Shown one piece after another: positions 19,033-57,117 of a stretch of 64,000 nt of DNA (position 1 is its first letter; every line of letters starts with the position of its first letter). The DNA is from Ignavibacteriae bacterium HGW-Ignavibacteriae-1 (GTDB lineage Bacteria > Bacteroidota > Ignavibacteria > Kapaibacteriales > UBA2268). The notes beneath the pieces were generated by a model. The model searched no databases and was not told the DNA's origin. It worked only from the letters and a program-made list of their open reading frames with translations. The DNA lies in the NCBI GenBank assembly GCA_002839825.1, contig PGYU01000007.1:27165-91164 (forward strand), written 5' to 3'. Made by a program: the position numbers and the translations under genes.

Positions 19033-19033
19033 A

Positions 19034-20025: not shown

Positions 20026-20096
20026 AAATTATTTATTAATATCTCCTGCTCATATTTTTAACATTATGGGCAGGAGTTTTAAAAAGGAACATAATA

Positions 20097-29234: not shown

Positions 29235-29332
29235 CTGAGTGAAATCATAAGCCCTTGTAATATACAATGTTACGAGGGCTTGTTTTTTGTTTCCAACATA
29301 TTACCAAAAGAATGCCAAACCGTCATTTTTGT

Positions 29333-38432: not shown

Positions 38433-39620
38433 TTATTCTTTTATGGCAAATTTTATTGCTTGTATGTCATTATTTGAAGTAACATTGAGAATATAAATAC
38501 CAATTGGTAGATTCAATGTACTTAAATCTAAATTATAATCATTATTCATAACATCTCTGTTATAAATTTGTTCACCCATTAAGTTGAATATATTTATAGA
38601 AAAGGGTTGAATTGAATTGACTTCTATAAGATTATTGATATAATCAACATTTATTTTTGAATTATTATCTACTTCGGCATTTTTCACACTAACCGTTGTT
38701 AAACCTCTATATAATTTACCGCCTTCAAAAGCAGCGTACAAGCTATTGTCAACATAATCCATTCCCTGCAAATGAGCATTAATAGGCGTATCTATGAATT
38801 CCCACGTCACTCCTCCATCGGAAGTGAAAAGTACAGAATTTTTATCAAAGCCAGCCCATCCAATTTGGCTATTTAACATCTTAAAGTTGCCGACTATAAA
38901 AATTGTAGTTTGAATTGTAGTTAACCAACTTTCACCACCATCAGTAGTTTTGATAATGAAACCAAATCCGGCAACCCATCCTGTAGATTTATCAATGAAT
39001 TGAACAGCTAAATTCCTATAAATTGCAGGAGTCTTGTGCGATTTCCAACTTTCGCCACCATTCGTCGTACTCAGTACTGCACCCATATCACCGACTACCC
39101 AGCCATTCATTTCATCAATAAAATATATTGACCATAAATGCAGATTGGGAATTTCATGCTGAAGTATGAACCAATTCTCGCCACCATCAATAGTTTTAAG
39201 CACAATACCGTTTTCTCCTGTTACCCAGCCAATATTTTTATCAAGAAAAAAAACAGAATTAAACTGCAGTTTAGAATTGCTTTCAAGCTTTCTCACTTCT
39301 CCATTGGAATTTACTTTAGATATCGCTCCATCAGTACCAACTATCCAACCGGTACCATCGGAGAATAAAAATATATCCACAAAAATATTACTTGTATCGG
39401 TACTGTGATCAATCCATGTGACGCCGGCATCCGTAGTTCTGAAAATGGTCCCGCTGTATCCCGCCATCCAACCATTATTACTATTATAAAATTTAATGCA
39501 ATTCATATCAGCAGCGCTTTCTATTTTAATTTCCTGCCAATCAATTTCTACCGAAAAAGTTGGGATAGTGCTTAAAAATAGCATAAAGGAAAGCAAAGTT
39601 GTCTTAAATTTCAGTTTCAT
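38433..39620 (-). CDS. BNR/Ycf48-like beta-propeller protein with a T9SS C-terminal domain.
   Basis: Repeats TTDAGVTW, TIDGGENW, TTNGGESW, TTDGGESW and TSDGGVTW. The C-terminus reads ...LNLPIGIYILNVTSNNDIQAIKFAIKE. The ATG at 39620 is preceded by AAAGGTGA, whereas the track start at 39659 would overlap the upstream gene. Confidence 0.6.
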   Translation of the reverse strand: MKLKFKTTLLSFMLFLSTIPTFSVEIDWQEIKIESAADMNCIKFYNSNNGWMAGYSGTIFRTTDAGVTWIDHSTDTSNIFVDIFLFSDGTGWIVGTDGAISKVNSNGEVRKLESNSKLQFNSVFFLDKNIGWVTGENGIVLKTIDGGENWFILQHEIPNLHLWSIYFIDEMNGWVVGDMGAVLSTTNGGESWKSHKTPAIYRNLAVQFIDKSTGWVAGFGFIIKTTDGGESWLTTIQTTIFIVGNFKMLNSQIGWAGFDKNSVLFTSDGGVTWEFIDTPINAHLQGMDYVDNSLYAAFEGGKLYRGLTTVSVKNAEVDNNSKINVDYINNLIEVNSIQPFSINIFNLMGEQIYNRDVMNNDYNLDLSTLNLPIGIYILNVTSNNDIQAIKFAIKE

Positions 39621-39631
39621 TATTTCACCTT

Positions 39632-40561
39632 TTATTTTAAATTTGAAATCTCTTTCCATTTAATAACACCGTGATAATTCTCTGCAACAAATAGTTTATT
39701 TTGATATAGAAACATTGCCCCCGGATATTCGCATTCTGAGCGGTCAAATTCTGTCCAATTCGCTCCGAAGTCTTGCGAATTTAAAATAATTCGTTCATTG
39801 TTTAATTTGCAATAAAGCCATATATTATTCTTGTCGCTCACAAATCCATTTATTGAATAATTAGTTTGCGTATTTATCCAATTCCAAGTTAAACAGTTAT
39901 CAGTGGAATTACAAAGTAAGCCATCGAACCCTAATGCCCATATCTTATTTCCATCATAATGAAGGTTCCAAATTTGTTCTCCTTCAAATATATTAATTAA
40001 TTTCCATGTTTCGCCTTCATCGTTTGATTCGTAAATAGCAGAAGCATTGTCATTATATGCTGATAAATATATTTTATCATGTACTTTTGCAATCGAAGTT
40101 AAGTTGGGATGTTCGATTATTGAAACTGCCTTCCATGTTTCTCCTTTATCTGTACTTCGCAATATGTAGGAATTTTGTGATAATATCAATAAGGTGTTTG
40201 GGTTGACATATGTGAATTTCGCTAAATTAAAAACAGGGTCAATACTCAAATCTTCAAACTCATTACCGGGTTTAGAAAAATATACAATTGTTCCGTAATA
40301 GCCAGTAATTAAAATTCCTCCATCCGGTGTAAAATCTATGTTCATCAAAGGGTAATGTGTTCCGACGTATTGTCTCTTCCAACTCAATCCGGCGTCTGTT
40401 GAATATAAATAATTATTCCTGGGTCCTAATACAATGCCTATTCCATTATCATTAAATTTGATTTTCGTTAATGGCTCGTTATTTAAATTTGCAACTGTAT
40501 TCCAATCTTCCGCTTCTGCACTAAGATGCATTATTAGCATAAATAAAATTAATATTTTCAT
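39632..40561 (-). CDS. BNR-repeat beta-propeller protein (secreted).
   Basis: Signal peptide. Repeats STDAGLSW, STDKGETW, SNDEGETW, DNCLTW and FGANW. Confidence 0.5.
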   Translation of the reverse strand: MKILILFMLIMHLSAEAEDWNTVANLNNEPLTKIKFNDNGIGIVLGPRNNYLYSTDAGLSWKRQYVGTHYPLMNIDFTPDGGILITGYYGTIVYFSKPGNEFEDLSIDPVFNLAKFTYVNPNTLLILSQNSYILRSTDKGETWKAVSIIEHPNLTSIAKVHDKIYLSAYNDNASAIYESNDEGETWKLINIFEGEQIWNLHYDGNKIWALGFDGLLCNSTDNCLTWNWINTQTNYSINGFVSDKNNIWLYCKLNNERIILNSQDFGANWTEFDRSECEYPGAMFLYQNKLFVAENYHGVIKWKEISNLK

Positions 40562-40571
40562 CGTTATTTCC

Positions 40572-42200
40572 TTAATTGATTATTATTCGTTGCGAAACAA
40601 ATTCATTCTTATCGGATTTGAGACCAATTAAATATGTGCCTGTAGTCAAATTAATCAGATTTAGTTTTATATGATGTTCTCCGGCATTCAAATTATTGAT
40701 ATTTGATAGTCTGCCAATGAATGCGCCCTGAATATCATATATATTTATCTCAATATTTCGCACTTCAGTTGTTTTGAATTTCATTGTAATAGAACCGTTG
40801 TATACCGGATTAGGATATAAATTCTGTATTTCGATTGCACCATTGGCAAATCGGCAATAATCGTAAAATGACTCTTCTTCAATGAAATTGCACGCTTCTT
40901 CTAAGCTTAATGTGCCGGACTCTATTGATGAAATAATTTCAATTTCATTTTTCAAAGCTTTTTTGTAGCGTTCCGGTAGTGATTCGATAAATTCATCTGT
41001 AGGATAATACCACAAAACTAATTTTTCAATCAAATCATTTTTATTAAATTTGATTTCGATTGGCAAAAGCTTCGAGTAATCCATGTTTTCAATATATTTC
41101 TGACTTATTGGCGAATCATGCGAAATAAATACATATTTATGGTCAGTATTATTGTATTTAAAAGCGGCAATTATCGGAACAACTTTGCTGTAGGAATCTT
41201 TTGCCCAATTACCGAATTGTGCAATATTATTTACAAAACCTTGTAAAGCCCGCGTCTTCCAATCTTCATAAGCGACTGCATAATCCATTCCAATGTATTC
41301 ATGAACCGAGCTATGCAATATTACATTTTTCAAATTGTAATATATTTTTCCGTCAATAGTGTCTGAGGTGGTTGCCGTTCTATATGCAGTAGCATGAATT
41401 GTGGCTTTAACCAATATAGATTCATCAAGTTTATCCTTCAAATCTATCTCATGGCGGGTTTTTATGAGTAGTGTATCGCCATTTACAGGGTAATTTCGTT
41501 CAACTAATTCATAATTCGCCGGAAGATTGCTATAAGATTTATTGTTCCTCATTGGAATTGGATGCAACTGATGAAAGTATTCGATAGGATATGATACAGT
41601 ATTTTCATTCAATTGAATATTTAATTTTGCTAATTCATTTTTTGTCAGATTTAAAGTTATTAGCCCCGGTATTGGGCTTCCTTCAGCATCGGTTTGAATA
41701 GAGCCTGGTTCGAGGAAATCTATAGATGTACTTTTGTTTCCAATTGTAAATACATTTTGCGGACGTTGAAGTGCTTCGGTTCTAAATGGATTTTTAATGT
41801 AAATAGGATAGTTTGTCAATTCCTCTTGAGATATGATTTGAGTTTTTCCTTCAATATGTTTGGATTTGGTACTACTTTCGGTTAATACTGCAATTTCTGA
41901 ATTGTCAATCAAATCATGTTCTGTGTGTTCAATTTCTGACGTATGGATACTGGATTTTGAACTAATTTCAATAATTTCAAGAATATTTGAAATCTCAAAG
42001 TATTGATTCATACTTAGAAAACTAAACACTACTAAAAAAGTCAACATTGCGATACTCCCCAACAGTTCGACATTCAGTGGTGAATTATGAGCAAATTTAT
42101 TCACTGCTAAAATTGAATTCAATTCCTTATCATCTAAAGGCTCTTTAAACTGATTCATTTCCTTAGCAGCAGCAAAATATTTATTTAACTCTGTATTCAT
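40572..42200 (-). CDS. Anti-sigma-like single-pass membrane protein with a T9SS C-terminal domain (paralogue of 24953-26554).
   Basis: A 45-aa N-terminal segment precedes TM helix LLGSIAMLTFLVVFSFL. The central domain shares WYYPTDEFIESLPERYK with the paralogue's WFEPTDELLKVVPENIK. The C-terminus is LYPNPVYNGSITMKF...GTYLIGLKSDKNEFVSQRIIIN. It overlaps the sigma gene by 20 nt. Confidence 0.5.
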   Translation of the reverse strand: MNTELNKYFAAAKEMNQFKEPLDDKELNSILAVNKFAHNSPLNVELLGSIAMLTFLVVFSFLSMNQYFEISNILEIIEISSKSSIHTSEIEHTEHDLIDNSEIAVLTESSTKSKHIEGKTQIISQEELTNYPIYIKNPFRTEALQRPQNVFTIGNKSTSIDFLEPGSIQTDAEGSPIPGLITLNLTKNELAKLNIQLNENTVSYPIEYFHQLHPIPMRNNKSYSNLPANYELVERNYPVNGDTLLIKTRHEIDLKDKLDESILVKATIHATAYRTATTSDTIDGKIYYNLKNVILHSSVHEYIGMDYAVAYEDWKTRALQGFVNNIAQFGNWAKDSYSKVVPIIAAFKYNNTDHKYVFISHDSPISQKYIENMDYSKLLPIEIKFNKNDLIEKLVLWYYPTDEFIESLPERYKKALKNEIEIISSIESGTLSLEEACNFIEEESFYDYCRFANGAIEIQNLYPNPVYNGSITMKFKTTEVRNIEINIYDIQGAFIGRLSNINNLNAGEHHIKLNLINLTTGTYLIGLKSDKNEFVSQRIIIN

Positions 42201-42609
42201 CTTTCACTCCAATTAATTCAGCCAATTGCTTTTTCGCTCTGTATAATCTTGATTTAATAGTTTCTTCGCTTACATTCATAATTATACTCGCTTCCTTTCG
42301 TGAAAAGCCCTCAATTTCTGATAAAATCAGCGTTTCTCTGTAATCCGGCTTCAACTTATTCATTGCTTGTCGCAAAAATTGAATATCAATCATTACATCG
42401 GGATGCAATGAGTTGTCCATTAAATTGTCAAAATCAAAATCCTTTTCAAAGTTGGATTGAAATTTGATTGATTTGTAAAACACTCTACTTGCGATAGTAA
42501 ATACATAGCTTAAGAAAGCATCTTCACTCTTGAGTTTGGCAAATCCTAAGAAAGCCTGATAAAGAGTTTCGCTCAGTAATTCCTTTGCATCGTCGGTATT
42601 TCTAGTCAT
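42181..42609 (-). CDS. ECF-type RNA polymerase sigma-70 family factor (short).
   Basis: Region 2 (LLSETLYQAFLGFAKL) and region 4 (ETLILSEIEGFSRKEASIIMNVSEETIKSRLYRAKKQL) are present. Confidence 0.7.
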   Translation of the reverse strand: MTRNTDDAKELLSETLYQAFLGFAKLKSEDAFLSYVFTIASRVFYKSIKFQSNFEKDFDFDNLMDNSLHPDVMIDIQFLRQAMNKLKPDYRETLILSEIEGFSRKEASIIMNVSEETIKSRLYRAKKQLAELIGVKDEYRVK

Positions 42610-42768: not shown

Positions 42769-43680
42769 TCACGGCTTATAGCTTTTTATTGCTTTAATGC
42801 GGGAATTAATGCCATCTATCACGGTATTGATTGGTGGCGAAGTGCCAAAGCCAAGCTCATTATGTTCGTCAATCAGATTGCCATTCTCGATTGGGTATAT
42901 GGACCTAACTGCCGAACCTGATGTGCTGAGAGGCAACAAACTGAAAAATGTCGAGGCTTCCGTTATACATATCATTCTGTATTCGAAGAAAATGAGGTAG
43001 GATTTGTTGAGTTCCATCTCGAAATTGGGATTTGTATCTTCAAACCATTCCTTGACATAGTCAAATTTCAAGCAATTGAAAGTGTCTGAGGAGTTTGAGC
43101 CTTCCTCTCCACATGTCAGAAGTTGTTTCCCTTTGAAAATGGTGTCAACTGTTGCAATTACTTCTCGAACTGTTTTGGGCTGTACTTTGTACGATGTGGC
43201 TCTCATCAAAATCGAATTTACCGTCACTCGTGCAACTAAGTATGACGAGGTCAATGATGCATCAATAATCGGAGTGGGCGATGCTCGCCGAATTTGTTCG
43301 ATAAAGGTGAAATAATAGTTCATCACAGATTGCTTATTCAGTTCGCCATAAATCATGTAATTGAGAAAATTTTCCGGACTATATTCGATAGTTTTATACA
43401 AATATTTCATCACGGTTTGGAGTGTATCATTATAGTCTTGTCTCAGTAAGCTACCATAAAATTCCTCGAAATCAGAGTTTTTAGTCAAGCTATCCAAGAA
43501 TCTGTATGCTCTTGCGACATCTTCAGGCATATCATCGGAATAGGGCGGATTGGAGGCATTTACCTCAGTCTCATAGTGAGTGCCGATAAAATCCGGTAAG
43601 CAGGGCAAATCCTGACCAAATATAGATTGGGTGAATATGAAATTCAGGCACAAAACAAGCAGTATAACTAATAACTTCAT
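42769..43680 (-). CDS. Hypothetical secreted protein.
   Basis: 303-aa ORF with signal peptide MKLLVILLVLCLNFIFTQSIFGQ. No family was recognised. Confidence 0.45.
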   Translation of the reverse strand: MKLLVILLVLCLNFIFTQSIFGQDLPCLPDFIGTHYETEVNASNPPYSDDMPEDVARAYRFLDSLTKNSDFEEFYGSLLRQDYNDTLQTVMKYLYKTIEYSPENFLNYMIYGELNKQSVMNYYFTFIEQIRRASPTPIIDASLTSSYLVARVTVNSILMRATSYKVQPKTVREVIATVDTIFKGKQLLTCGEEGSNSSDTFNCLKFDYVKEWFEDTNPNFEMELNKSYLIFFEYRMICITEASTFFSLLPLSTSGSAVRSIYPIENGNLIDEHNELGFGTSPPINTVIDGINSRIKAIKSYKP

Positions 43681-43969
43681 GACTTTTCCTCAATTAATCA
43701 AGCGACACTCACTACAATTCAAATGAAAGAAACGAACGAATTCAGCTTTTGTTTATCATGCAAAAAAATCTTAAATTCAATATGAAATACTTTTAGTTAA
43801 AATATTAACATAATAATATAAAAAACATGTACAATCAATTCAATATGTTACAAAAGTGACAAAAATACATTTATATATAGAGATTACGATGATTTTCTTG
43901 CATGAATAAAAAATAATACTTAATTTCACAACTGTATTGATTGTAAAAATAAAATAATTATTTTAATAT

Positions 43970-46801
43970 ATGAACATAATAAGTCATTTTAAAGATAGAG
44001 GAAAAGCAGTCACCATAACTTATAGCTTGGTTTTTGCTTTAATTGCCTACTTAGCATTTACGACACTCAACTCTGCGGTACAAGTAACAATGCCCGAAGA
44101 GAACGACGAATGCATGATGTGCCATGACGACAAAGATTTGAAAGGTACGCGCAAAGGCAAGAATATTTCGATGTATGTCAATCCCAATCACGTTTTGGGT
44201 TCAGTTCACGCTGAAGTAAAATGCGTTGATTGCCATACAGATTTAGCAGGAGTGGAATTGCCTCACGAGGACGATTTGAAGCCCGCAACTTGTGGTAAAT
44301 GCCACACTAAGCAGCAAAAGGATTTCGACATGAGCTTTCATGGTGTAGCACTCAAAAAAGGCGACCCTTTGGCGCCTAATTGTCAGTACTGCCACGGTAG
44401 CCACCAAATTGTTGATGCAAAGCACGAAAAATCGCCCGTGCAACCCCTCAAAATACCATTCATGTGTGGGAAATGCCACCAAGAAGGTGCACCCGTACAA
44501 ATGTCTAGGAATATTCCCCAATCGCATATCTTGGAAAATTATTCTGAGAGTATTCATGGTGAAGGTCTTTTCAAGCGCGGTTTAGTTGTGACTGCTACTT
44601 GCGTTTCGTGTCATACTGCACATGCGATTTTGCCACATACTGATAAGAGGTCTTCGATTGCACGTAATAATATTGCCGCAACGTGCTCTCAATGTCATGC
44701 GAGAATTGAAGATGTGCACAAAAAAATCATTGATGGCGAATTATGGGAGAAAGAAGCTCATACGCTGCCTGCTTGTGTTGATTGCCACCAACCTCATAAA
44801 GTTCGGAAATCGTTTTATGATGTAGGTTTAGCAAAAGCCGAGTGTTTGAATTGTCACCAAGATAAAAATATTAAAGCAAGCAAAGGCGGTCGCTCTCTGC
44901 ATGTTGATATAAGCAAATTAGACCATTCGGTACATTCAGACCTTGCTTGCAGTAAATGCCATATTGAGGTTCGCCCATCTAAAATTCGCTCTTGCGAAAC
45001 AATTACAACAAAAGTTAATTGTGGAAGTTGCCATGACAAAGTAAACGATAATTATATGCAAAGCAGCCATGGGAAGCTATTCTTAAGTGGTGAAAGTGAT
45101 GCTCCAACTTGTGTAACATGCCACAATGACCACGAAGTGCTCCCGAAGATTAATCCAATGTCTAAAACTTTTGCTATAAATATTCCTAACCTATGCTCAG
45201 AGTGTCACCAAGACGGACATCAAGCAGCGGTCAGGATGGAAGACAAGGTACAACATCTTACAGAAACTTATTCGGAGAGTATTCACGGGCAGGGCTTGAA
45301 ATCCGGCAGACTCAAAGTAACGGCGAATTGTTCGGATTGTCACTCTGCGCATATGGAAGCAAATCATGAAAATCCCGTATCCTCGACTCATAAGGACAAT
45401 ATTAGCACCACTTGTGGCAAGTGCCATTGGGGAATTCAGACTCAATTCGATAAAAGTATCCACTCGCCAATGGTATCAAAATCGGAAGATGACTTGCCAA
45501 ATTGTAACACATGCCATGTGGCTCACTCAGTAGTTGACCCATCAAAAGATGAGTTCAGATTGTCCATGTTGAATACCTGCGGCAAATGCCATGAAAAAAT
45601 TACTCACTTATATTTCGATACATATCACGGGAAGGCGTCACTTCTTGGTTCGGGCAAAGCTGCTAAATGCCAAGATTGCCATAGCGCCCATATGATATTA
45701 CCAACATCACACGCAAATTCGACACTTTCACGAGACAACATTGTCGAAACATGTGCAAAATGCCATCCCGCAGCTAATAAAGGCTTTACAAGGTATTTAA
45801 CTCATGCAACTCATCACGACCCGGAAAAATACCCACTGCTTTTCATCACATTTTGGGGTATGACAATACTTCTTCTCGGCACATTTCTGGTTTCATGGTT
45901 GCACACATTATTGTGGTTGCCAAAGTCATTAAAGATGCGAAAAGAGATGATGGTACTCAAAGCCGCTGGGCATTCTGGCAAACGCGTTAGGAGATTTACA
46001 CCATTGAACCGAATTTTGCACGTCACAATGATATTATGCTTCCTGACTCTTGCCGCCACAGGGATGATGCTCAAATTCTCATATGCTTGGTGGGCACAAT
46101 TCAGCGTTAAGTTGATTGGCGGAGTGGAAGTTACAGGCTTCTTCCATCGCTTTGCTGCAATAGTATTGTTCGGTGTATTCTTTACTCATATTTTCGATTT
46201 AATATTCAACAAACGTAAAGAATTTAGTTCATGGAAAGAAATGCTTTTGGGTTCGGATTCTCTTTTGCCAAATAAAAAAGATTGGGAAGATTTTATCGGC
46301 TCAATGAAATGGTTCTTCAACAAAGGACCGCGCCCGCAATACGGAAGATGGACTTATTGGGAAAAATTCGACTATTTTGCAGTATTTTGGGGGATTTTCG
46401 TAATTGGCTCAACCGGGCTTATGCTCTGGATACCCGAGTTTTTCACCAAATTTATGTCCGGACAATTCATTAACGTTGCTACTATTATTCATAGTGACGA
46501 GGCATTGCTTGCAGCAGGATTCATTTTCACCATACATTTCTTCAATACGCACTTCCGTCCGGAAAAATTCCCTATGGATACCGTAATTTTCTCAGGAAGT
46601 TATGATGTAGAAGAATTCAAATTCGACAGACCCGCCGAATATGAAAAATTGGTCGAAGAAGGGAAATTGGAAGAACTTTACGTTGACGCACCGACTCCGA
46701 CACAAAAGAAAGTTCATTCAATCTTTGGATGGGCAGCTTTATTAACCGGATTATTAATAGTCTTTTTAATAATTTATTCGATTATTAGCATTAACTTTTA
46801 A
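43970..46801 (+). CDS. Membrane-anchored 19-heme c-type cytochrome fused to a C-terminal FdnI/HydC-like diheme cytochrome b domain (CbcL-like).
   Basis: I count 19 CxxCH motifs between residues 48 and 600. The C-terminal 330 aa hold 4-5 TM helices with [25 protein letters not shown] and [18 protein letters not shown], matching the Ni/Fe-hydrogenase/formate-dehydrogenase b-type cytochrome family. Confidence 0.8.
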
Positions 46802-46812
46802 ATGTAAGTATA

Positions 46813-46945
46813 TCAATTCATCCGATGACTCCAAGTCATCGGATGAATATTGTAGATTAAAATATTGTAGGGACAGCAACAGCGTTCTGTCCAAAATATC
46901 GTCATACTTAGCTGCATGCGAAGAATCAAGTTTTCAAAAAAACAT
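46813..46945. repeat. ~130-bp intergenic repeat element, copy A (copy B at 55284-55412). It opens with a 14-bp-stem hairpin.
   Basis: Copy A reads caATTCATCCGATGACTccaAGTCATCGGATGAATAt...GGACAGCAACAGCGTTCTGTCC...GAAGAATCAAGTTTTCA, and copy B is nearly identical. Confidence 0.65.
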
Positions 46946-47378
46946 TCCGTCAGGTCTACAACTGACGGACTGAAATGAAGAACATGTTTACCGTCAGTTA
47001 TAACAACTGACGGGACAATAAAACGAATGATATTGTATAAATTGTTGCAGTGAATAAGGTAGGTGACGTTTGGGTGATAAAACTTGGAGAGACTTCTGTT
47101 TTGCAGTTCTCAAATGTTCATCATATAGTGTTTTCCATATCTCAAGCACTTTTTAACTAATTTTAAGGACGTTATTAGTATTTACCCATAAATCAGAAAA
47201 TAGTATCAAAGAAATTATTAATTTTTAGAAATATAGTACAAACTAAAAATAAATGTTGAAATTTAATTCAATTTGTTTATCTTTGTTTGTTGACTTTTTG
47301 GATGTTTATATATAGTTATATATATATGTTGTTTTTTAGATATAAATAATCTTACAATAATATTCTGATAAGGTAAAT

Positions 47379-48545
47379 ATGAAAGACAAGAAGCATATAG
47401 TAATAGTATTCTCAATAGTTTTTGGGAGTATAATTATAGCGTTGATTGCTGACAGATTATTGCAACCTACAAGTTTCGGCAAATACGGACATTACCGTTG
47501 GGATGCCGTTAATGAGCTTCAGACTCAGAAAATCATAAATCAAAATACTAATACATGTAGTGAATGTCATAATGATATATATCAGTTGCATCAGAAGGAC
47601 GCTCATTTTAGTGTGCCTTGTGTTGACTGCCACGGTGCGGGAGATTTGCACGTTTCATTCTATAGAAAAGATGAAAACTCGAAGAATATCACCAAATTAC
47701 AAGCTGTACTGAAAAAAGAATTTGATTTCGAAGGTTGTCTTTATTGCCACCGGAAATTAAATGCTCGACCTTCTGACTTCCCTCAGATAAATCAGGAAGA
47801 GCATTACAAATTTATGCACGTAATTGATTCAACTACAAAATGTATTGCCTGCCATGATCCTCACGAGCCTATATTTCTATTGACTGAATCAAGACAGGCT
47901 CGTCTGCATCCAATAGTTTACAAATGTACTGATTGCCACAGTAAAAGACCCGAAAAGAATTATTATGATGTTGCCGACCATCCTAAGATATTCGAATGTA
48001 AAGATTGTCATTCCGAAATTGTCAAGGATTTCAACACTAAATCTCACAGTAACGCAGTTGAATGTCGAACATGCCATTTATTTCATAAAGAAGATGAGAC
48101 AATTGGACGAATGTATAAAAACGGAAACATGGAATTCTGTTTGCTTTGTCATGAAAAGAAACCCTTCAAAGATGCAGACTTTCCTCCTAAAGTTGAGTGG
48201 CCTTCCCACATTGGCAGTCTAAAACATATAGAAAAGACAGATACGAAATTATGTCTTGACTGTCACGCAAAGGATATTCATAAAATGGATTTAAGATTGA
48301 GGGGGAATCCGCATCCCGGAAATTGGAAAGCCGAACATAAGAAATATGCAAAGAGAACTTTTGCTTCTAATGACAAATCTGATTGTAAAAATTGTCATAC
48401 AAAGGATTATTGTATGTCCTGTCATTTGACAGAAATGCCACACCCGGTTGATTTTATGGATAATCACAAATTCACTGTTGAGAAAAAAGGGAAAAAAATG
48501 TGTGCAAACTGCCATAATACTGATTTCTGCGGTCAATGTCATTAA
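47379..48545 (+). CDS. Membrane-anchored 13-heme c-type cytochrome.
   Basis: An N-terminal TM helix precedes 13 CxxCH motifs, the last being CGQCH at the C-terminus. Confidence 0.8.
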   Translation: MKDKKHIVIVFSIVFGSIIIALIADRLLQPTSFGKYGHYRWDAVNELQTQKIINQNTNTCSECHNDIYQLHQKDAHFSVPCVDCHGAGDLHVSFYRKDENSKNITKLQAVLKKEFDFEGCLYCHRKLNARPSDFPQINQEEHYKFMHVIDSTTKCIACHDPHEPIFLLTESRQARLHPIVYKCTDCHSKRPEKNYYDVADHPKIFECKDCHSEIVKDFNTKSHSNAVECRTCHLFHKEDETIGRMYKNGNMEFCLLCHEKKPFKDADFPPKVEWPSHIGSLKHIEKTDTKLCLDCHAKDIHKMDLRLRGNPHPGNWKAEHKKYAKRTFASNDKSDCKNCHTKDYCMSCHLTEMPHPVDFMDNHKFTVEKKGKKMCANCHNTDFCGQCH

Positions 48546-48620
48546 ACGTATTTGAAATAAAATGTTTACGTATTATCAAGAGAAACAAATTGATTAAACA
48601 GTAAAATAAGGACATTTAAA

Positions 48621-49376
48621 ATGGATAATATAGAAAGAAGGCAATTCATAAAATGCGGTTTGTACAGTACAGCCGGAATACTTGTCGGGTCATTTTTTGC
48701 TTTCAGTAAAAGCAGCGACCCTATTGAAGTTCTAAAATATGAGGATTTGCTAAAGTTCGACTGGGGCTATATAGTTGATACTACAAGATGTATCGGCTGC
48801 GGTGCGTGCGTAAGAGCTTGTTCGGTAGAAAATAATGTACCTGATACATTTTTCAGAACGTGGGTTGAAAGATTTGAAATTAATAAGGATGAGCAGGTAA
48901 GGGTTGATTCACCGAACGGAGCAATGGAAGGTTTCAAAAATGACAATTTTGATACCGATATTGTTAAAGCATTCTTTGTACCAAAAATCTGTAACCACTG
49001 TCAAAATTCAGCCTGTACACAGGTTTGTCCTGTCGGAGCATCATACCATTCACCGGATGGTGTTGTACTGATAGACAAAGAACATTGCATTGGGTGCGGA
49101 TACTGCGTTCAGGCTTGCCCGTATAGCTGTAGATATATAGACCATAAAGTCGGTGTTGCGGATAAATGTACATTATGTTATCATAGGATTCACAAAGGCG
49201 AACTACCGGCTTGTGTAAATGCCTGTCCCCGTAATGCTCGGATTTTCGGCAATCTGAAAGACCCCGAAAGTAATATTCGTAAAATTCTACACAAAAGAAG
49301 ATATGGTATACTTAAACCTGAATTAGGAACTAATCCTAAATGCTTTTACATCGGACTTGATATGGAGGTTAAATAA
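48621..49376 (+). CDS. Tat-exported 4x[4Fe-4S] ferredoxin subunit (NrfC/PsrB/HybA family).
   Basis: Tat motif RRQFIK. Four Cys clusters: CIGCGACVRAC, CNHCQNSACTQVCP, CIGCGYCVQACP and CTLC...CVNACP. Confidence 0.85.
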   Translation: MDNIERRQFIKCGLYSTAGILVGSFFAFSKSSDPIEVLKYEDLLKFDWGYIVDTTRCIGCGACVRACSVENNVPDTFFRTWVERFEINKDEQVRVDSPNGAMEGFKNDNFDTDIVKAFFVPKICNHCQNSACTQVCPVGASYHSPDGVVLIDKEHCIGCGYCVQACPYSCRYIDHKVGVADKCTLCYHRIHKGELPACVNACPRNARIFGNLKDPESNIRKILHKRRYGILKPELGTNPKCFYIGLDMEVK

Positions 49377-50524
49377 TGGAAACGGCACAAAATTTCCTTT
49401 TCCCCAATGAAATGCATATTTACTGGACAGTTATGATTGTCTTATATCCATATATCACAGGTATGGTTGCAGGTGCTTTTATAGTATCGTCATTTTATCA
49501 TGTTTTTGGTATGGAAAAACTCAAGCCAATCGCAAAATATGCACTTGTTTCATCACTTGCATTTTTACTTTTCGCGACAGTACCGCTCCTTAATCATCTC
49601 GGCAGACCCGAAAGAGCATTTAATATTATGCTGACGCCGAATTTTAATTCTGCTATGAGCGGTTTTGGCTTTGTTTATGCATTTTATATGTTAATTGTTG
49701 TATTGGAAATCTGGTTCAGTTACAGAAAGGAATTTATAGAAAAGTATAAGCAGTCAAAGGGATTTGTAAAGTTCATTTATAAGGTCCTTATTCTCGGCAA
49801 TACAAATGATAATCTTAATACAAGAAGATATGACAATAAAATGGTTGTTGTCTTGGGTGCAATCGGAATACCGGTGGCGTGTATTCTGCACGGATATGTT
49901 GGTTTTCTATTCGGTTCTTTAAAGGCAAATCTATGGTGGTCAACTCCTCTGATGTTTATTATTTTCATATTTTCGGCAATTGTTTCCGGCTTGGCGGTTC
50001 TGACATTTCTATATTTGTTTGTACATTGGAAAAGAAAACTTAAAATCAATCAGGAAGCTATTGATTTAATGTCAAAATGGCTTTGGGGGTTTATGATAAT
50101 AGCAGTTACACTCGAACTAATGGAGGTTTTGTCTATTGCTTATGAACAAACAGAAAAATGGGAAATCCTACATCAACTAATATACGGCAAACTTAAGGTC
50201 TCGTATTTATATCTACAGATTGGACTGTTTTCCATTGTGCCGTTTTTAATTCTTACAATTACATCATTAGTGAAATTTGATAACAGAATAAGAAATTTTT
50301 TGATTTGGCTCTCATCCGGCATGTTGTTAATTCAGGTTTTGCTGATGCGCTGGAATGTAGTTATCGGAGGACAGTTAGTATCCAAAAGTATGAGAGGATT
50401 TACAGAATATTTTCCGGGCTTATTAGATAAAGAGGGTTTATTAGTTTCATTTTTACTGATATTTATTCCATTTTTATTATTAAGAGCTTTTGATAAATTT
50501 TTCCCGTTTTTCGAGAAACAATAG
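49376..50524 (+). CDS. NrfD/PsrC-family integral membrane quinol-interacting subunit.
   Basis: 382 aa with ~9-10 TM helices and an NrfD-like N-terminus (HIYWTVMIVLYPYITGMVAGAFIV). The start overlaps the upstream stop (ATAATGG). Confidence 0.8.
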   Translation: METAQNFLFPNEMHIYWTVMIVLYPYITGMVAGAFIVSSFYHVFGMEKLKPIAKYALVSSLAFLLFATVPLLNHLGRPERAFNIMLTPNFNSAMSGFGFVYAFYMLIVVLEIWFSYRKEFIEKYKQSKGFVKFIYKVLILGNTNDNLNTRRYDNKMVVVLGAIGIPVACILHGYVGFLFGSLKANLWWSTPLMFIIFIFSAIVSGLAVLTFLYLFVHWKRKLKINQEAIDLMSKWLWGFMIIAVTLELMEVLSIAYEQTEKWEILHQLIYGKLKVSYLYLQIGLFSIVPFLILTITSLVKFDNRIRNFLIWLSSGMLLIQVLLMRWNVVIGGQLVSKSMRGFTEYFPGLLDKEGLLVSFLLIFIPFLLLRAFDKFFPFFEKQ

Positions 50525-51680: not shown

Positions 51681-53111
51681 ATGAAAATACTATACTTTGT
51701 TGTTACATTTATGTTGATAATCGCCAATTATGGGACTTTAAGTTCGATAGAAAACGATGATTGCATGATGTGTCATTCTGATCCCGATATGTATATGGAA
51801 AAGGGGCGTTCAAAAATTTCTCTATGGGTGGATAATTCAAAGTTTATGTTTTCTGCCCATAAAAATGTGAAATGTATAGACTGCCACAAGGGATTCGACC
51901 CCGATGATATCCCGCATAAAGAAAATATTGGGAAAATTGATTGCAACTCATGTCATCAAGGAGTCGAAAAAAAGCATACCTTCCACCCATGGATGGCAGA
52001 TGCTCCTTTGCAAAACGATTGCAAAAAATGTCATGGCTATCATTATGCAACTCCGGCTAAGGGCAAAGGCAGCAAGGTCTCCGGCATTCATTCTCTTCAA
52101 CAATGCGGCACTTGCCATCAAGATGTGGTTGACGAATATATGAAATCGGAGCATTACAAAGCATTATTGAGCATCTCGGACGAAAATGCCCCCGATTGCA
52201 ATTATTGCCATAGTAAACCCATCACTAAGGGCTGGATTGGAAATTATATTGAGCGAAAAGCAAACCAAAACCAAGTTTGTACAGATTGCCATAGTCACGA
52301 CACCAAAAATCCCTCGGTCATCAAAACGATAACAAATTCTAATTCGAGGCATTTCCAACTGAAAGCTGAAGGTAAAGAGCACGCTGCAGTATGTACGGAT
52401 TGCCACGGATTTCATAATATTAAGAAAAATGAGGATTTTGAAGCTCGTCTCAGTGTCAAAAATTCATTCTCTGCGTGTGGCAAATGCCACGTTCATATCG
52501 CCCAAGAATATCAAAACAGTATCCACGGGTTGGCTCAAATCAAAGGCAATATGGATGCTGCATCGTGCGTCAGTTGCCATTTCGAACATGATTTGAAAAA
52601 GGTTCCACACGTAGATGAAGCCATTTTCAAAAGTAATAAATTAAACAAACAATTTGCCATAGACAGCAAAATGATTTATTGCGTTTCTTGCCATGGCGAT
52701 TCGGAATTAATGGGCAAAAGCAATATCAAATCATTGTTGGAATCACATTCGTGGTTGCCGGAACTCGAAAGCCATTTTTCCGCAGTATCTTGTTTCGATT
52801 GTCATTCGAGTTATACGGTACCGTATTTATCGCATAATATATTACCTTTGGAAAAAAGTGTCAAAACTTGCAATCCATGCCACGAGCAGGACATGAATTT
52901 GAAATCTAAATTGGCAAATTATTACAAGACACGAAAAACCGGAGAATCCGGAATAATTGACGGCACAATAGGCGGTGGCAGTTACGTTGGCTTGTCTCGG
53001 AGTGTAATTCTTGATAATCTAAGTTTTATACTTCTGGGAGGCGTATTTATTGGTTTACTCGCTCATGGTTATATTAGATGGTACTTCAGAAGCAAAAAGG
53101 AATCAAAATGA
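51681..53111 (+). CDS. 13-heme c-type cytochrome with N- and C-terminal membrane anchors.
   Basis: I count 13 CxxCH motifs. The N-terminus CMMCHSD resembles the 43970 protein's CMMCHDD. A C-terminal hydrophobic helix is present. Confidence 0.8.
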   Translation: MKILYFVVTFMLIIANYGTLSSIENDDCMMCHSDPDMYMEKGRSKISLWVDNSKFMFSAHKNVKCIDCHKGFDPDDIPHKENIGKIDCNSCHQGVEKKHTFHPWMADAPLQNDCKKCHGYHYATPAKGKGSKVSGIHSLQQCGTCHQDVVDEYMKSEHYKALLSISDENAPDCNYCHSKPITKGWIGNYIERKANQNQVCTDCHSHDTKNPSVIKTITNSNSRHFQLKAEGKEHAAVCTDCHGFHNIKKNEDFEARLSVKNSFSACGKCHVHIAQEYQNSIHGLAQIKGNMDAASCVSCHFEHDLKKVPHVDEAIFKSNKLNKQFAIDSKMIYCVSCHGDSELMGKSNIKSLLESHSWLPELESHFSAVSCFDCHSSYTVPYLSHNILPLEKSVKTCNPCHEQDMNLKSKLANYYKTRKTGESGIIDGTIGGGSYVGLSRSVILDNLSFILLGGVFIGLLAHGYIRWYFRSKKESK

Positions 53112-55270
53112 AAAAGTTAGAACTATACCCGATTTGGATTAGAATTTGGCATATTTTGCAAGGTATTTTATTTCTTCTTCTTTTGATTTCCGGTGTTGGT
53201 ATGCATTTTGGGATTGTACCGATTGGCTTTTCATTGCCAATCCATATTTATTCCGGTATCACGATGTCGGTACTATATATACTATTTTTCGTAATGAATT
53301 TCGCAACCGGGAATGCAAAACATTATTTCAAAATTCAAAAAGGGACAGTAAAGAAATTTTTTGTAGAATTAAAATATTATTTTTGGGATATATTTATTCA
53401 GCAAGAATTGGCATACGACCCGGAAATCATTAAATTCGGTGTTTTCAAGCAATTATTATATTTGAAAATAATGTATATAGTTATTCCATGTATTATTATT
53501 ACAGGATTAATTATTTTGATACCAAATCTGATGCCTGAAACGATTTTTGGTAGCTCAGGTGTTTGGGTTATTACGCTGATTCACACGATAATGGGATTCT
53601 TCCTGACTGCGTTTTTCCTTTTGCACTTATATTTGGGTACAACAGGCAAGACAGTTGGTCAATTATATAAAGCAATTGCAAGCGGTAGTCTGGAATACGA
53701 AGAAAAAATACCGGAACAAGAATTACCATCGGATTTAGTAAAGAAAAAGAAATTCTTCCCGACATCATTTTATAATCCGCTTACAATGCTCGGCTCATTA
53801 TTAGCATTAATGGCATTTGTAGTGATTATCGGACTATTATTTGTTGACATAATTGCAGGATTTGACAATCCCTATATCGGCATTGTTACATTCATTTTCT
53901 TACCTATAATTCTTGGTCTCGGTATAGTATTGATATTTCTCGGGGCTTTATGGGAAAGCAAAAAACGTTTTCTTGCCCAAAAGAAAGATAAACCATTGCC
54001 AATAATAGATTTAAATAGTCCCAAAACCCAAAGAATAATAGCATTTATGTCAATTATTGGTGTGATTTTGTTATTATTCACAGTATTCGGCTCGTTTAAA
54101 GCTTACGAATATACGGAATCTGATGAGTTTTGCGGCGAGGCATGTCATCAGGTTATGCACCCTGAATATTTGGCATATCAAGATTCTCCGCATTCAAATG
54201 TGGGATGCGTCAAATGCCACATCGGTTCAGGTGCAGATTGGTTTGTCAAAGCCAAGTTGTCCGGTAGTTGGCAGCTGATTTCGGTTATGTTTGATTTGTA
54301 TTCAAAACCGATTCAAGTGCCTGTTGCTCATCTACGTCCTGCCCAAGAGACTTGTGAGCAGTGCCATTGGCCCGCTAATTTCAATAGCGAAAAGAAAATA
54401 GTCTATGATTTTTTCCAATCGGACGAAGTCAATTCCGAAACGATGTTGACAATGTTACTCAAAACCGGTGGTGGTACACCTGAAAGCGGTAGGCAATCCG
54501 GGATTCATTGGCATATGAATCTCGCTAATGAGATTCATTATATTGCAAATGATTACGAGCGCCAAGATATTCCTTGGGTGAGAGTGGTTTCAAAATTGAC
54601 CGGCGATACGACTATTTATATCAGAGAAGACGACGAAATAACACCGGATATGCTCGAGCCCGAAAAATTACGGAAAATGGATTGTATTGATTGCCACAAC
54701 AGACCATCGCACATTTACAAGATTCCTTACAAGGAAGTAAATACATATATGTCGAATCGCAAAATTGACAATTCACTGCCATTTATCAAAAATCTCGCCG
54801 TCCAAATACTCGAATCATATTCGATTAATCGCGAAAATTCATTGGCGGAAATTAGTAATTATATAAATAATTTTTATAATAAATATTACCCTGAAACAGC
54901 GAAGGGGAAAAAGCATCAGATTCAGCAATCAATCCACCACATTAACACAATTTATTTGCGAAATTATTTCCCGGAAATGCATACAAATTGGAAACGATTC
55001 CCGAATAATTTGGGGCATATGTATTCCGATGGGTGCTTCAGATGCCACGACGGTAAACACAAATCAGCTGACGGGAAAGTGGTGAGCCACGATTGCAATG
55101 TTTGTCATACAATTATTTCACAAAAAACGCCCGGTCAAATTGAAGAAACACGCGGTTTAGACTTGGAATTCAAGCATCCCGGTGGCGAAAATCTCAACAT
55201 CGAAAACAGACTTTGTTCCGACTGTCATGGCATTAAACAAGTGAAAAACATACAGGCATTCAAAAAATAA
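53108..55270 (+). CDS. Fusion of an FdnI/HydC-like cytochrome b (N-terminal) with a periplasmic 7-heme NapC/NirT/ImcH-like c-type cytochrome (C-terminal).
   Basis: The ATG at 53108 follows AAGGAA and overlaps the upstream stop by 4 nt. N-terminal motifs: IWIRIWHILQGILFLLLLISGVGMH and ITLIHTIMGFFLTAFFLLHLYLG. Seven CxxCH motifs follow, including CVKCHIGSGADWFVKAK, which is NapC/NrfH-like. Confidence 0.75.
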   Translation: MKKLELYPIWIRIWHILQGILFLLLLISGVGMHFGIVPIGFSLPIHIYSGITMSVLYILFFVMNFATGNAKHYFKIQKGTVKKFFVELKYYFWDIFIQQELAYDPEIIKFGVFKQLLYLKIMYIVIPCIIITGLIILIPNLMPETIFGSSGVWVITLIHTIMGFFLTAFFLLHLYLGTTGKTVGQLYKAIASGSLEYEEKIPEQELPSDLVKKKKFFPTSFYNPLTMLGSLLALMAFVVIIGLLFVDIIAGFDNPYIGIVTFIFLPIILGLGIVLIFLGALWESKKRFLAQKKDKPLPIIDLNSPKTQRIIAFMSIIGVILLLFTVFGSFKAYEYTESDEFCGEACHQVMHPEYLAYQDSPHSNVGCVKCHIGSGADWFVKAKLSGSWQLISVMFDLYSKPIQVPVAHLRPAQETCEQCHWPANFNSEKKIVYDFFQSDEVNSETMLTMLLKTGGGTPESGRQSGIHWHMNLANEIHYIANDYERQDIPWVRVVSKLTGDTTIYIREDDEITPDMLEPEKLRKMDCIDCHNRPSHIYKIPYKEVNTYMSNRKIDNSLPFIKNLAVQILESYSINRENSLAEISNYINNFYNKYYPETAKGKKHQIQQSIHHINTIYLRNYFPEMHTNWKRFPNNLGHMYSDGCFRCHDGKHKSADGKVVSHDCNVCHTIISQKTPGQIEETRGLDLEFKHPGGENLNIENRLCSDCHGIKQVKNIQAFKK

Positions 55271-55412: not shown

Positions 55413-55596
55413 ACATGAATTACTCATTTCGTTCAAAATGACAAATGGAGCTTGATACTGCGTATGTATAAGTCCCTGAATTATTATTATGATGCTTAAC
55501 TTATATAATTTACAAATAGAAAGTTAGTATTAAATATAATAGTTTAAGATTTTATTCGTAATGCTTTCTAATTTTAAAACAAGGAAGTATTTAATT

Positions 55597-56790: not shown

Positions 56791-57117
56791 TTTTTCGCCC
56801 CGTCAGTGTTACAATTGTGAAATAAAGAGCCTGTTTTACAGTATTTCAACTGATTGAAAAAGCAAATTCTCGTCAGTAATAACAAAGACAGGACAAAATC
56901 CTGTCCAGTCATTACTCTTCTACTTATTGCAATAACTTATTTACTCGAACGTGCTTTTTTTTATGAAAAATGAATGTATCATGATTATATCAAATCATGC
57001 AACTAACTCTTGTTGCGGCTTTAAGTATTCCGGATTATCAGACATGTATAGAGGAGAAATCCACTAAGGTTTAACTTATTTTAGTTCATTTTGAGGTATG
57101 GTAGGATGTATGCTTGT

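Follow-up and report, generated by a model that had tools for sequence, protein, structure and literature searches.

The 943-aa open reading frame (ORF) at positions 43970..46801 (plus strand) of the window (the whole 64,000-nucleotide stretch analysed, from Ignavibacteriae bacterium HGW-Ignavibacteriae-1) is, judged by its sequence, an uncharacterised member of the known CbcL/MtrH/MtoC family. By the same evidence, its correct annotation is that of a CbcL-family bc-cytochrome, and not that of a 'formate dehydrogenase cytochrome b subunit'. In all likelihood the protein connects the quinone pool with electron carriers of the periplasm. Taken as a whole, the explanation that we consider likely is an inner-membrane bc-type cytochrome that would pass electrons from menaquinol into a chain of c-type hemes, with the function of a quinol oxidoreductase predicted by analogy with CbcL. 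The gene, its immediate surroundings and the segments of the encoded protein are as follows:

42769-43680, minus strand: divergent 303-aa ORF, on the other side of the intergenic region from the cytochrome gene
43681..43969, no strand assigned: AT-rich intergenic region, presumed promoter region (read from the sequence)
43970..44077, plus strand: predicted N-terminal export signal, aa 1-36 (hydropathy, charge counts)
44102..44839, plus strand: heme block A (aa 45-290) with hemes 1-8, a duplicate of block B (self-BLAST)
44840..45592, plus strand: heme block B, hemes 9-16, aa 291-541, start of the presumed ancestral 11-heme unit (alignment with the 11-heme relative P0133)
45593..45829, plus strand: hemes 17-19 and the junction motif Y-L-T-H-A-T-H-H-D (H612, H615, H616), directly before the first membrane helix
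45830..45919, plus strand: transmembrane helix TM-A, aa 621-650, predicted tether helix running from periplasm to cytoplasm (hydropathy; AlphaFold2 helix 622-666)
45983..46642, plus strand: FdnI-like four-helix diheme cytochrome b core, aa 672-891 (TIGR01583, profile search, Foldseek)
46346..46375, plus strand: invariant or nearly invariant ten-residue motif, aa 793-802, where TM-D begins on the cytoplasmic side (alignment A4)
46718..46789, plus strand: TM-F, aa 917-940, the sixth and C-terminal helix (hydropathy; AlphaFold2 helix 910-942)

The ORF opens with ATG and is a complete gene. Its product contains 19 CxxCH motifs, at aa 48, 85, 108, 138, 166, 211, 239, 269, 292, 327, 351, 381, 409, 454, 482, 512, 537, 567 and 595, against a mean of 0.11 and a maximum of 2 in 5000 shuffles of the same protein; a scan of the 943 residues for the variants CxxxCH, CxxxxCH and CxxCK gave none. 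Hydropathy indicated a hydrophobic N-terminal segment (aa ~14-36) and, C-terminal of the heme domain, six transmembrane segments (621-650, 678-705, 719-745, 801-823, 836-861 and 917-940) that coincide with AlphaFold2 helices. All 57 Cys/Cys/His residues of the motifs were at least 95% conserved in 112 homologues of 900-1000 aa. The probability that the ORF is an artefact, be it a pseudogene in decay or two genes joined through faulty sequencing or assembly, is negligible. One relative (P0018, 1566 aa, 30 motifs) does resemble two adjacent family genes read as one; however, the identical 943-aa protein has been deposited independently (GenBank PKL85637.1, Ignavibacteriae HGW-1, 100% identity), its fused design is already present in 9-heme CbcL, and the 112 further homologues from several phyla agree with it in length, in the full set of 19 motifs and in every b-heme ligand. 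Because these homologues conserve the motifs, an accident of assembly or gene calling can be ruled out.

The family has been delimited by 3-23 N-terminal CxxCH motifs, six C-terminal transmembrane segments, membrane His residues as b-heme ligands and a BLAST E value below 0.01 (PMC6295460). Here, the N-terminal half is rich in CxxCH (19 motifs, aa 48-599), and is followed by six transmembrane segments with membrane His residues; homology is likewise evident. For comparison with CbcL we used a Geobacteraceae orthologue (L060, 616 aa), chosen from Geobacteraceae/Desulfuromonadales MAGs as a stand-in for GSU0274; in length and motif positions this orthologue agrees with the CbcL proteins of Geobacter listed in Table S2 of PMC6295460. 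Over its full length it aligned with aa 377-940 (38% identity, 595 columns, E 9e-129), confirming the homology to CbcL claimed in the earlier note, which had proposed such an alignment. The six transmembrane segments lie about 330 aa further along than in GSU0274, the sixth helix of CbcL being at 589-611 (Table S2, PMC6295460). The novelty that the earlier note implied does not hold, given that a table published in 2018 already listed CbcL/MtrH/MtoC homologues with 19 motifs and others with as many as 23; examples in the table include OGV21847.1, OGU58019.1 (Ignavibacteria), PKP08298.1 and MAF27600.1 (Zhong & Shi 2018, PMC6295460). PKL85637.1 is absent from that table. A relative with 56% identity to the 943-aa protein over 99% of length (P0029) falls in the same 90% cluster as OGV21847.1. 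The 19-motif proteins are only tabulated in the 2018 study, without the 8-heme duplication or a functional analysis (Zhong & Shi 2018), and we found no functional study of any 19-heme member in the literature.

The internal repeat and the match to an 11-heme relative show that the 19-heme arm arose when the first eight hemes of an 11-heme ancestor were duplicated in tandem. Self-BLAST aligned aa 67-297 with aa 309-542 (32% identity, E 8e-46), and the 11-heme relative P0133 (681 aa, 11 CxxCH) aligned with both halves of the arm and, end to end, with aa 291-939 (41% identity, 5 gaps). In the AlphaFold2 model a low-pLDDT hinge (aa 260-286) lies ahead of block B. At the junction with the membrane domain, H612 was invariant in 30/30 sequences of the wide family alignment; within the 19-heme clade, H612 and H615 were 100% conserved and H616 97%. 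The heme domain (aa 1-620) has 21 conserved His residues outside the motifs, enough for bis-His ligation of all hemes, and no conserved Met, and all 19 hemes are predicted to be bis-His, low-spin and electron-transfer-only. A catalytic heme (CxxCK, Met-ligated or with an open site) was looked for in the protein and rejected: none was found, no Met is conserved and the His residues suffice for bis-His ligation. When the full-length AlphaFold2 model (pTM 0.54) was searched against the PDB with Foldseek, only FdnI was recovered, through the b domain, with no match for the heme arm.

Ahead of the arm, aa 1-36 comprise a basic n-region (K8, R10, K12) and a 20-residue hydrophobic core followed by N-S-A before V. 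This own site leaves it ambiguous whether the segment is cleaved off as a Sec signal peptide or retained as an anchor. Most N-termini in the family are classical cleavable signal peptides with A-x-A before Q a few residues ahead of heme 1, and the cleavage-type sites of the closest relatives read S-S-A or L-S-A. Because most relatives have ordinary cleavable signal peptides, the earlier suggestion of a signal-anchor helix that would leave both ends of the protein membrane-embedded is doubtful. A match to PF03264 raised the prospect of a NapC/NirT-type N-terminal quinol site, which we rejected since the match is partial (52 residues, 27.3 bits) and scores lie far below the family cut-offs (TIGR02161, 16.3 against 310.6); these scores and the N-termini place the protein outside the NapC/NirT/NrfH tetraheme quinol dehydrogenases.

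Several lines of evidence identify the C-terminal domain as an FdnI-like diheme cytochrome b. Pfam PF01292 (Ni_hydr_CYTB) scored 45.4 bits against a cut-off of 30.1 (E 9.8e-12), and a family profile searched against the PDB matched E. coli FdnI alone (1kqf_C, E 4.6e-11). An AlphaFold2 model of the C-terminal domain (pLDDT 87, pTM 0.83) retrieved 1kqf_C with Foldseek (E 1.6e-4, probability 1.00, target TM 0.77, rmsd 3.9 A, 237 columns), as well as HyaC (probability 0.94). Positive-inside charge counts agree with the topology of FdnI, and the loop at aa 651-677, with nine Lys and Arg against one Asp or Glu, fits a cytoplasmic location. Together with the motif scan, these results uphold the reading in the earlier note of a single 943-aa polypeptide in which 19 c-heme sites are fused to a diheme cytochrome b of the FdnI/HydC type. 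Both peptides it quoted are present, the 13-residue peptide holding H684 and the 18-residue peptide holding H841 and H856. The predicted b-heme ligands, by analogy with FdnI, are H726 and H841 on the periplasmic side and H684 and H856 on the cytoplasmic side. In order of sequence, H684, H726, H841 and H856 align with H18, H57, H155 and H169 of FdnI, which we take from the 1KQF structure to be its ligands, with one inserted residue between the last two; as in FdnI, helix 1 and helix 2 carry one ligand each and helix 4 carries two. All four, on which the earlier reading had hinged, are thus aligned with FdnI; they are invariant in the 19-heme clade and present in 29-30/30 of the wide-family sequences. 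In one relative, R occupies both position 684 and position 856, a paired loss.

Because the NCBIfam equivalogs for FdnI and HydC scored far below their cut-offs (TIGR01583, 45.6 bits against 115.85, E 8e-12 over aa 672-891; NF007924, 21.6 against 341), the b domain is FdnI-like and not FdnI. For the same reason, and since there are no formate dehydrogenase genes near the cytochrome gene in the window, the database label 'cytochrome b subunit of formate dehydrogenase' is a domain-level name only. The ten-residue motif at aa 793-802, in which W794 to Y802 are invariant in alignment A4 and R793 is outside the invariant list, aligns with FdnI residues 108-117. That loop of FdnI presumably lines the HQNO/menaquinone pocket (1KQF/1KQG structures), and by analogy the motif is a candidate quinone-site loop. 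Three further invariant His residues in the cytoplasmic half, H645, H740 and H861, are unexplained by the two-heme model of FdnI; H645, at the cytoplasmic end of TM-A, is present in 29/30 family sequences. As a secondary, quite unlikely possibility, H645 and H740 might be the ligands of a third b heme located towards the cytoplasm.

The cytochrome gene is surrounded by other quinol:cytochrome modules, with at least two further quinone-linked cytochrome modules in the island, and its neighbouring genes are ImcH-like. An obligatory multi-subunit complex was considered and rejected because none of the operon partners sought in seven related loci was strictly conserved, and at 2/7 of these loci neither a cytochrome gene nor an Fe-S/NrfD gene adjoins it. 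As part of the explanation that we favour, the protein would need no partner subunit. The 19-heme gene is often found side by side with a 13-heme paralogue and an ImcH-like protein. Matches resembling sigma-70 promoters in the upstream region (43681..43969) were not clearly more numerous than in shuffled sequence. In the 577-bp gap downstream (46802-47378), a search for a hidden small gene or RNA gave only short chance ORFs and no Rfam match, and terminator-like hairpins occurred only at chance frequency.

The heme domain is covalently continuous with the six-helix membrane domain, in which the central four helices carry the four His ligands for two b hemes stacked across the membrane. In the favoured explanation, the N-terminal 620 aa would be exported by Sec. 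Menaquinol would bind at the cytoplasmic face beside the inner b heme, near H856/H861 and the loop at aa 793-802, and its protons would be released to the cytoplasm. Electrons would cross the membrane via heme bC and heme bP, reach heme 19 beside the THATHH junction, and follow the c-heme chain outwards to acceptors in the periplasm or the outer membrane. By the argument made for CbcL, such a route would bring no gain of proton-motive force, and would therefore be suited to low-potential acceptors; we infer that a quinol site on the cytoplasmic side would draw on the membrane potential. The nine hemes of CbcL are bis-His and low-spin, with an Eapp of -194 mV, and reduce PpcA (PMC9129911), while proton release to the cytoplasm and a lower growth yield have also been argued (10.1101/2022.08.31.506072).

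The heme chain could also operate in reverse, making the protein a quinone reductase. The arm would then take up electrons from donors in the periplasm or outside the cell (Fe(II), reduced shuttles, a partner cell, or dehydrogenases of the periplasm acting via cytochromes) and pass them through the b hemes to menaquinone at the cytoplasmic face, where cytoplasmic protons would be consumed, and the protein would act as one half of an FdnI-style redox loop that generates proton-motive force. We judge inward flow to be unlikely, although FdnI, which the b domain resembles, naturally runs in this direction (10.1101/2022.08.31.506072), and the MtoC proteins of the family come from Fe(II) oxidisers, for which inward flow has been proposed within a family that may catalyse both reactions (Zhong & Shi, PMC6295460). 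However, CbcL, the only characterised member, oxidises menaquinol, and the ImcH family, to which the neighbouring genes bear a likeness, has so far been implicated only in quinol oxidation. Moreover, no mtoAB-type porin-cytochrome pair adjoins the gene in the window or in the seven related loci, and CbcL-type bis-His hemes are low-potential, and thus ill suited to accepting electrons from a donor of high potential such as Fe(II).

Two other proposals concern what the additional hemes contribute. It is quite unlikely that what matters for function is how long the heme arm is, with a membrane-tethered 19-heme wire bridging most of the periplasm and repeated block duplications giving rise to family sizes of 9, 11, 13, 19 and 22-23 hemes. 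MtrA-like chains extend about 1 nm per heme, equivalent to an estimated 15-19 nm for the 19-heme chain if extended. Electrons could then reach acceptors in the outer membrane or at the cell surface directly, with no need for soluble shuttles, and the 19-heme gene, 13-heme paralogue and ImcH-like protein would represent 'short' and 'long' outlets with different partners or potentials. We regard it as highly unlikely that the extra hemes serve mainly for electron storage, as a 21-heme membrane-tethered capacitor buffering the quinone pool, with reach secondary. Storage would agree with the addition by duplication of eight electron-transfer-only hemes and no catalytic site, and with the description of the CbcL/PpcA pair as an electron reservoir (PMC9129911). 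Yet it would make covalent linkage to a transmembrane b domain unnecessary, and the extreme conservation of heme number and spacing across phyla (112/112 sequences) suggests that the constraint is on geometry and not simply on capacity.

No simpler connection between the quinone pool and periplasmic multiheme wiring is known than the CbcL-type proteins, among which the Geobacter protein with nine hemes is the only one studied. For the 19-heme form, over 100 clusters of sequences with at least 54% identity were found, distributed among Ignavibacteriota/Kapabacteria, Bacteroidota, Acidobacteriota, Gemmatimonadota and Latescibacteria. Given this wide spread and the strikingly conserved heme count, the 19-heme form may be a common, unstudied respiratory electron exit or entry point in bacteria of sediments and the subsurface that do not belong to the classic metal reducers. 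For the window, the value of the result lies mainly in good annotation.

Among known systems, the arm shows weak sequence similarity to MtrA/DmsE decahemes (TIGR03508, E 1.2e-20, aa 33-246) and to the NrfB pentaheme (2ozy, E 8.6e-6, aa 209-297), at scores far below the family cut-offs and without a structural match. This similarity suggests a wire-like chain of bis-His hemes; unlike the 943-aa protein, MtrA/DmsE and NrfB are soluble or porin-inserted and have no cytochrome b fusion. FdnI (1KQF chain C) has in common with it the four-helix diheme b fold and all four His ligands, and a cytoplasm-side quinone site is presumed here by analogy. In contrast, FdnI is a separate 217-aa subunit fed by the Fe-S subunit FdnH, whereas the partner here is the covalent c-heme chain, and two extra transmembrane helices flank the core, of which TM-F is absent from FdnI and present in CbcL. 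HyaC/HydC are more distant than FdnI.

Within the family, the 19-motif homologues of Zhong & Shi have the same motif spacing and six transmembrane helices as the 943-aa protein, at lengths of 907-952 aa, and the 11-heme members (Opitutus terrae Oter_2603; P0133), without the N-terminal 8-heme block, represent the presumed ancestral unit. CbcL differs in having nine c-hemes in about 616-619 aa, as opposed to 19 in 943 aa, in the spacing of hemes along the arm, and in its host group (Desulfuromonadia, compared with an Ignavibacteriae/Kapabacteria-type host here). The aligned CbcL orthologue has Ala in place of H740, which is also absent from CbcL-like family representatives. The function of CbcL has been tested genetically and biochemically, whereas that of the 943-aa protein is a prediction. 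As in the 943-aa protein, CbcL (GSU0274) and its orthologues combine, in a single polypeptide, a periplasmic multiheme c domain with six subsequent transmembrane helices bearing an FdnI/HydC-type diheme b, and both lack Fe-S, flavin or molybdopterin partners. Also common to the two are the junction His residues (THxxxH), H645, the four b-heme ligands, H861, and the motifs RWTYWEKFD and RPEKFPMD.

The ORF at 43970-46801 (+) reads through 943 uninterrupted codons on translation and encodes exactly 19 CxxCH motifs, and a search of the protein for variant heme motifs found none. Shuffled versions built from the same residues (n = 5000) contained 0.11 CxxCH on average and never more than two, bearing out an earlier note's claim of an ORF with 19 c-heme sites. 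Hydropathy delineated the following segments, with which long helices of the AlphaFold2 model coincide:

Hydrophobic segments of the 943-aa protein
Start of the protein: N-terminal hydrophobic segment
aa 621-650, 678-705, 719-745, 801-823, 836-861, 917-940: six hydrophobic segments C-terminal to the heme region

Pfam places multiheme c-type domains across aa 43-516 and matches Ni_hydr_CYTB at 45.4 bits (cut-off 30.1), while aa 672-891 match NCBIfam's model for the formate dehydrogenase gamma subunit (E 8e-12), with a score far under its equivalog cut-off. The protein is a 19-site heme domain covalently joined to an FdnI-type di-heme cytochrome b domain with FdnI topology; the core of the earlier reading, a fusion of 19 c-hemes to a di-heme cytochrome b, is correct.

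To assign the b domain, the 339 C-terminal residues were aligned with relatives both near and remote; the sole PDB match to a profile of this domain was E. coli FdnI (1KQF chain C; E 4.6e-11). In this profile comparison H684, H726, H841 and H856 align with FdnI H18, H57, H155 and H169, respectively, which ligate the two b hemes in 1KQF. A single inserted residue sets the last two 15 residues apart, rather than 14 as in FdnI. The earlier note had named absence of four such ligands, relative to FdnI/HydC, as grounds against its interpretation; all four are present and aligned, and the interpretation stands. They are 100% conserved in the 19-heme clade (n = 112) and kept in 29-30 of 30 sequences of the wider family, the lone exception carrying Arg at both 684 and 856, a joint loss that is expected if H684 and H856 ligate one heme. 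The AlphaFold2 model of the b domain (pLDDT 87.4, pTM 0.83) matched 1kqf_C in Foldseek with a probability of 1.00 and a target TM of 0.77, followed by HyaC (probability 0.94). Charge counts assign the K/R-rich loops 651-677 and 746-800 to the cytoplasm, implying the FdnI topology, with H726/H841 on the periplasmic side and H684/H856 on the cytoplasmic side. Beyond these four, H645, H740 and H861 are invariant in the 19-heme clade, all within that half of the membrane domain which lies towards the cytoplasm, where they could belong to a quinone site, help to conduct protons or bind a further cofactor. H740 sits exactly 14 residues past H726 on the same helix, and is limited to the 11- and 19-heme clades, being missing from the 9-heme CbcL clade.

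CbcL has nine CxxCH motifs followed by six transmembrane helices, located in Geobacter GSU0274 at 285-307, 351-373, 399-421, 477-496, 511-533 and 589-611 (Zhong & Shi 2018, PMC6295460). The six helices of the window protein form a matching set, offset by ~330 residues. As a stand-in for GSU0274 we used an ORF from locus L060, one of the Geobacteraceae MAGs recovered by a genome scan seeded with 9-heme relatives; it encodes a CbcL orthologue of 616 aa, whose nine motifs lie at 34, 57, 82, 105, 129, 158, 186, 229 and 257, the pattern tabulated for Geobacter CbcL proteins (PMC6295460). Its entire length aligns to aa 377-940 (38% identity, 595 columns, E 9e-129), and the two proteins have in common the junction His, H645, the four ligands, H861, RWTYWEKFD and RPEKFPMD. 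This end-to-end alignment directly supports membership of the CbcL/MtrH/MtoC family, in line with the earlier note's label of CbcL-type.

The suggestion that the protein begins with a signal-anchor helix, so that both of its ends are embedded in the membrane, is doubtful. Most relatives carry an ordinary signal peptide ending A-x-A|Q, 2-6 residues ahead of heme 1, and the putative signal peptides of the closest relatives finish S-S-A or L-S-A; in the window protein a 20-residue hydrophobic core is followed by N-S-A|V, a weaker site. The family pattern makes cleavage likelier than an anchor, and a cleaved signal would leave the distal end of the heme chain free.

Self-comparison suggests how the long heme arm arose. 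Residues 67-297 align with 309-542 (32% identity, E 8e-46), and a second register pairs aa 77-243 with aa 446-599. An 11-heme family representative (P0133, 681 aa) can be aligned over its full length to aa 291-939 at 41% identity with only five gaps, and its heme domain aligns additionally with aa 40-414. Together, these alignments indicate that the protein comprises an 11-heme unit preceded by an N-terminal copy of that unit's first eight hemes. The heme units are themselves built up from four-heme sub-repeats of ~122 residues, and the joint between the two heme blocks (aa 260-286) is the only long low-confidence stretch of the AlphaFold2 model. A b-domain search covering 1.84 billion representatives found 2273 relatives (347 below E 1e-30), with heme arms of 2 to 22 motifs, most commonly 9 or 11 and also 13, 15, 17 and 19. 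One relative (P0138) carries 22 CxxCH as an exact 11+11 tandem duplication ahead of the b domain, which, with this range of counts, implies that arm length varied recurrently within the family. Another (P0018, 1566 aa, 30 motifs) reads as 11-heme-b and 19-heme-b proteins in one ORF, and is either a true fusion or an artefact of gene-calling or sequencing.

In the 19-heme clade, conservation is at least 95% at each of the 57 motif residues and at least 94% at 21 additional His of the periplasmic part, and no conserved Met was found in the clade alignment; these His are enough for bis-His ligation at every heme. The nine hemes of CbcL are experimentally bis-His (PMC9129911). Neither motifs nor clade conservation gave any indication of a catalytic heme. 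Among proteins of solved structure, the heme arm comes nearest in sequence to NrfB and next to PDB 28pb chain A, a 278-residue 'Cytochrome c' whose alignment to aa 291-418 (E 4.3e-5) pairs up three heme motifs.

Identity to the top 120 database relatives is 54-96% across almost the entire protein, and nearly all of them carry the same 19 motifs; their named sources are Kapabacteria, Ignavibacteriales, Bacteroidota, Acidobacteria, Gemmatimonadota and Latescibacteria. GenBank PKL85637.1 ('Ignavibacteriae bacterium HGW-Ignavibacteriae-1'), from what is by name a Horonobe deep-groundwater MAG (PMC5520028), is 100% identical. The 19-heme-b architecture is already in the literature: OGV21847.1, which shares a 90% cluster with a relative 56% identical to the window protein at 99% coverage (P0029), is tabulated among the CbcL/MtrH/MtoC homologues (944 aa, 19 motifs, six TM helices; Zhong & Shi 2018, PMC6295460). 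The same study includes some twenty proteins of this type, as well as one with 23 motifs, and reports a family range of 3-23 motifs in 15 phyla; PKL85637.1 is absent from its table (PMC6295460). Literature searches turned up no functional work on 19-heme members, so the window protein adds a new member to a subgroup that is catalogued but uncharacterised. One 96% identical relative, MBS3999268.1 (P0001 cluster), comes from a MAG labelled Desulfobulbaceae; the other near-identical copies in that cluster are all labelled Ignavibacteriae or Kapabacteria, and the label is probably a binning error, or possibly the mark of a recent transfer.

Of the earlier description as a quinol oxidoreductase, the CbcL-type family holds, and the function is suggested by comparison with FdnI and by the reasoning published for CbcL (10.1101/2022.08.31.506072). 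By this analogy the heme domain would be exported and the quinone site would lie on the cytoplasmic face, close to heme bC, to H856/H861 and to an invariant [10 protein letters not shown] loop, which aligns with FdnI residues 108-117. Menaquinol would be oxidised there with protons released inside, and electrons would pass across the membrane through both b hemes, join the c chain beside the THATHH junction and exit at its distal end, a route that would add nothing to the proton-motive force. Quinone reduction by the reverse reaction, generating proton-motive force, seems unlikely but keeps some weight because the CbcL/MtrH/MtoC family includes MtoC of Fe(II) oxidisers (PMC6295460). That the arm owes its length to service as a tethered, periplasm-spanning wire we consider improbable.

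Upstream of the 19-heme gene lies an AT-rich region of its own, and in the 577-bp gap that follows the gene no credible gene, RNA or terminator was found. No obligatory partner emerged across seven related loci, two of which have the gene without a cytochrome or Fe-S/NrfD neighbour; several nonetheless contain recurrent neighbours.

Quinone-linked cytochrome modules near the 19-heme gene and its relatives
Window 47379-50524 (+): 13-heme cytochrome (388 aa), Tat-signal 4Fe-4S protein and NrfD-type membrane protein; third quinone-linked module beside the 19-heme gene
Window 51681-53111 (+): 13-heme cytochrome, C-terminal hydrophobic segment aa 441-465, 34-nt overlap with the next ORF, the b-ImcH fusion
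Window 53078-55270 (+): cytochrome b + ImcH-like fusion, 730 aa
L003 12834-14978; L005 7827-9950; L006 7787-9967: 13-heme paralogue with a CbcL-type b domain of its own in one 707-726-aa protein, adjoining the 19-heme gene
L004 7797-9928: 13-heme-b unit split into a 481-aa cytochrome and a 229-aa cytochrome b

The 4Fe-4S protein is TtrB/DsrO-like and begins MDNIERRQFIK; the same trio lies near a 19-heme orthologue in a Kapabacteria MAG (L001 14741-18170). ImcH-like proteins with one CxxxCH and six CxxCH occur within a few kb of the 19-heme gene in L004 (508 aa), L005 and L006 (499 and 510 aa). The 730-aa fusion, which may merit separate attention, begins with a PhsC-like cytochrome b (NF011582, E 4.4e-31; PF01292) and continues into an ImcH-like heptaheme part (CGEACH at aa 352 plus six CxxCH), and its aa 224-721 are 45-47% identical to the stand-alone ImcH-like proteins of the related loci. 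These halves are separate genes in the related loci, as with the 229-aa cytochrome b and the 508-aa protein of L004.

Several T9SS-sorted (Por_Secre_tail) secreted proteins, including BNR/YCF48-like beta-propeller proteins and one CotH-domain protein, flank the cytochromes at 38433-42609 (-) and 55561-59454 (+). A truncated-looking ECF sigma factor (142 aa, region 4 only) is encoded at 42181-42609 (-), and an ECF sigma/anti-sigma pair adjoins the 19-heme orthologue in L003. Further afield, a lone phage terminase large-subunit ORF (Terminase_6N/6C) occurs at 13711-15144 (-), and L004, from a Kapabacteria MAG, has a similar one at 18926-20437 (-), ~6 kb away from its 19-heme gene. Downstream of a tRNA-Ser(GCT) at 29145-29235 (+), a 1022-aa ORF (29569-32637) combines YadA-head repeats with Peptidase_S74 (endosialidase chaperone) at the C-terminus; its product is tail-fibre or adhesin-like, and this may be a mobile-element remnant.

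With its neighbours, the 19-heme gene forms part of an island whose quinone-linked cytochrome modules look like alternatives to one another, an arrangement that resembles the ImcH, CbcL and CbcBA set of Geobacter, whose members serve different potentials (10.1101/2022.08.31.506072).
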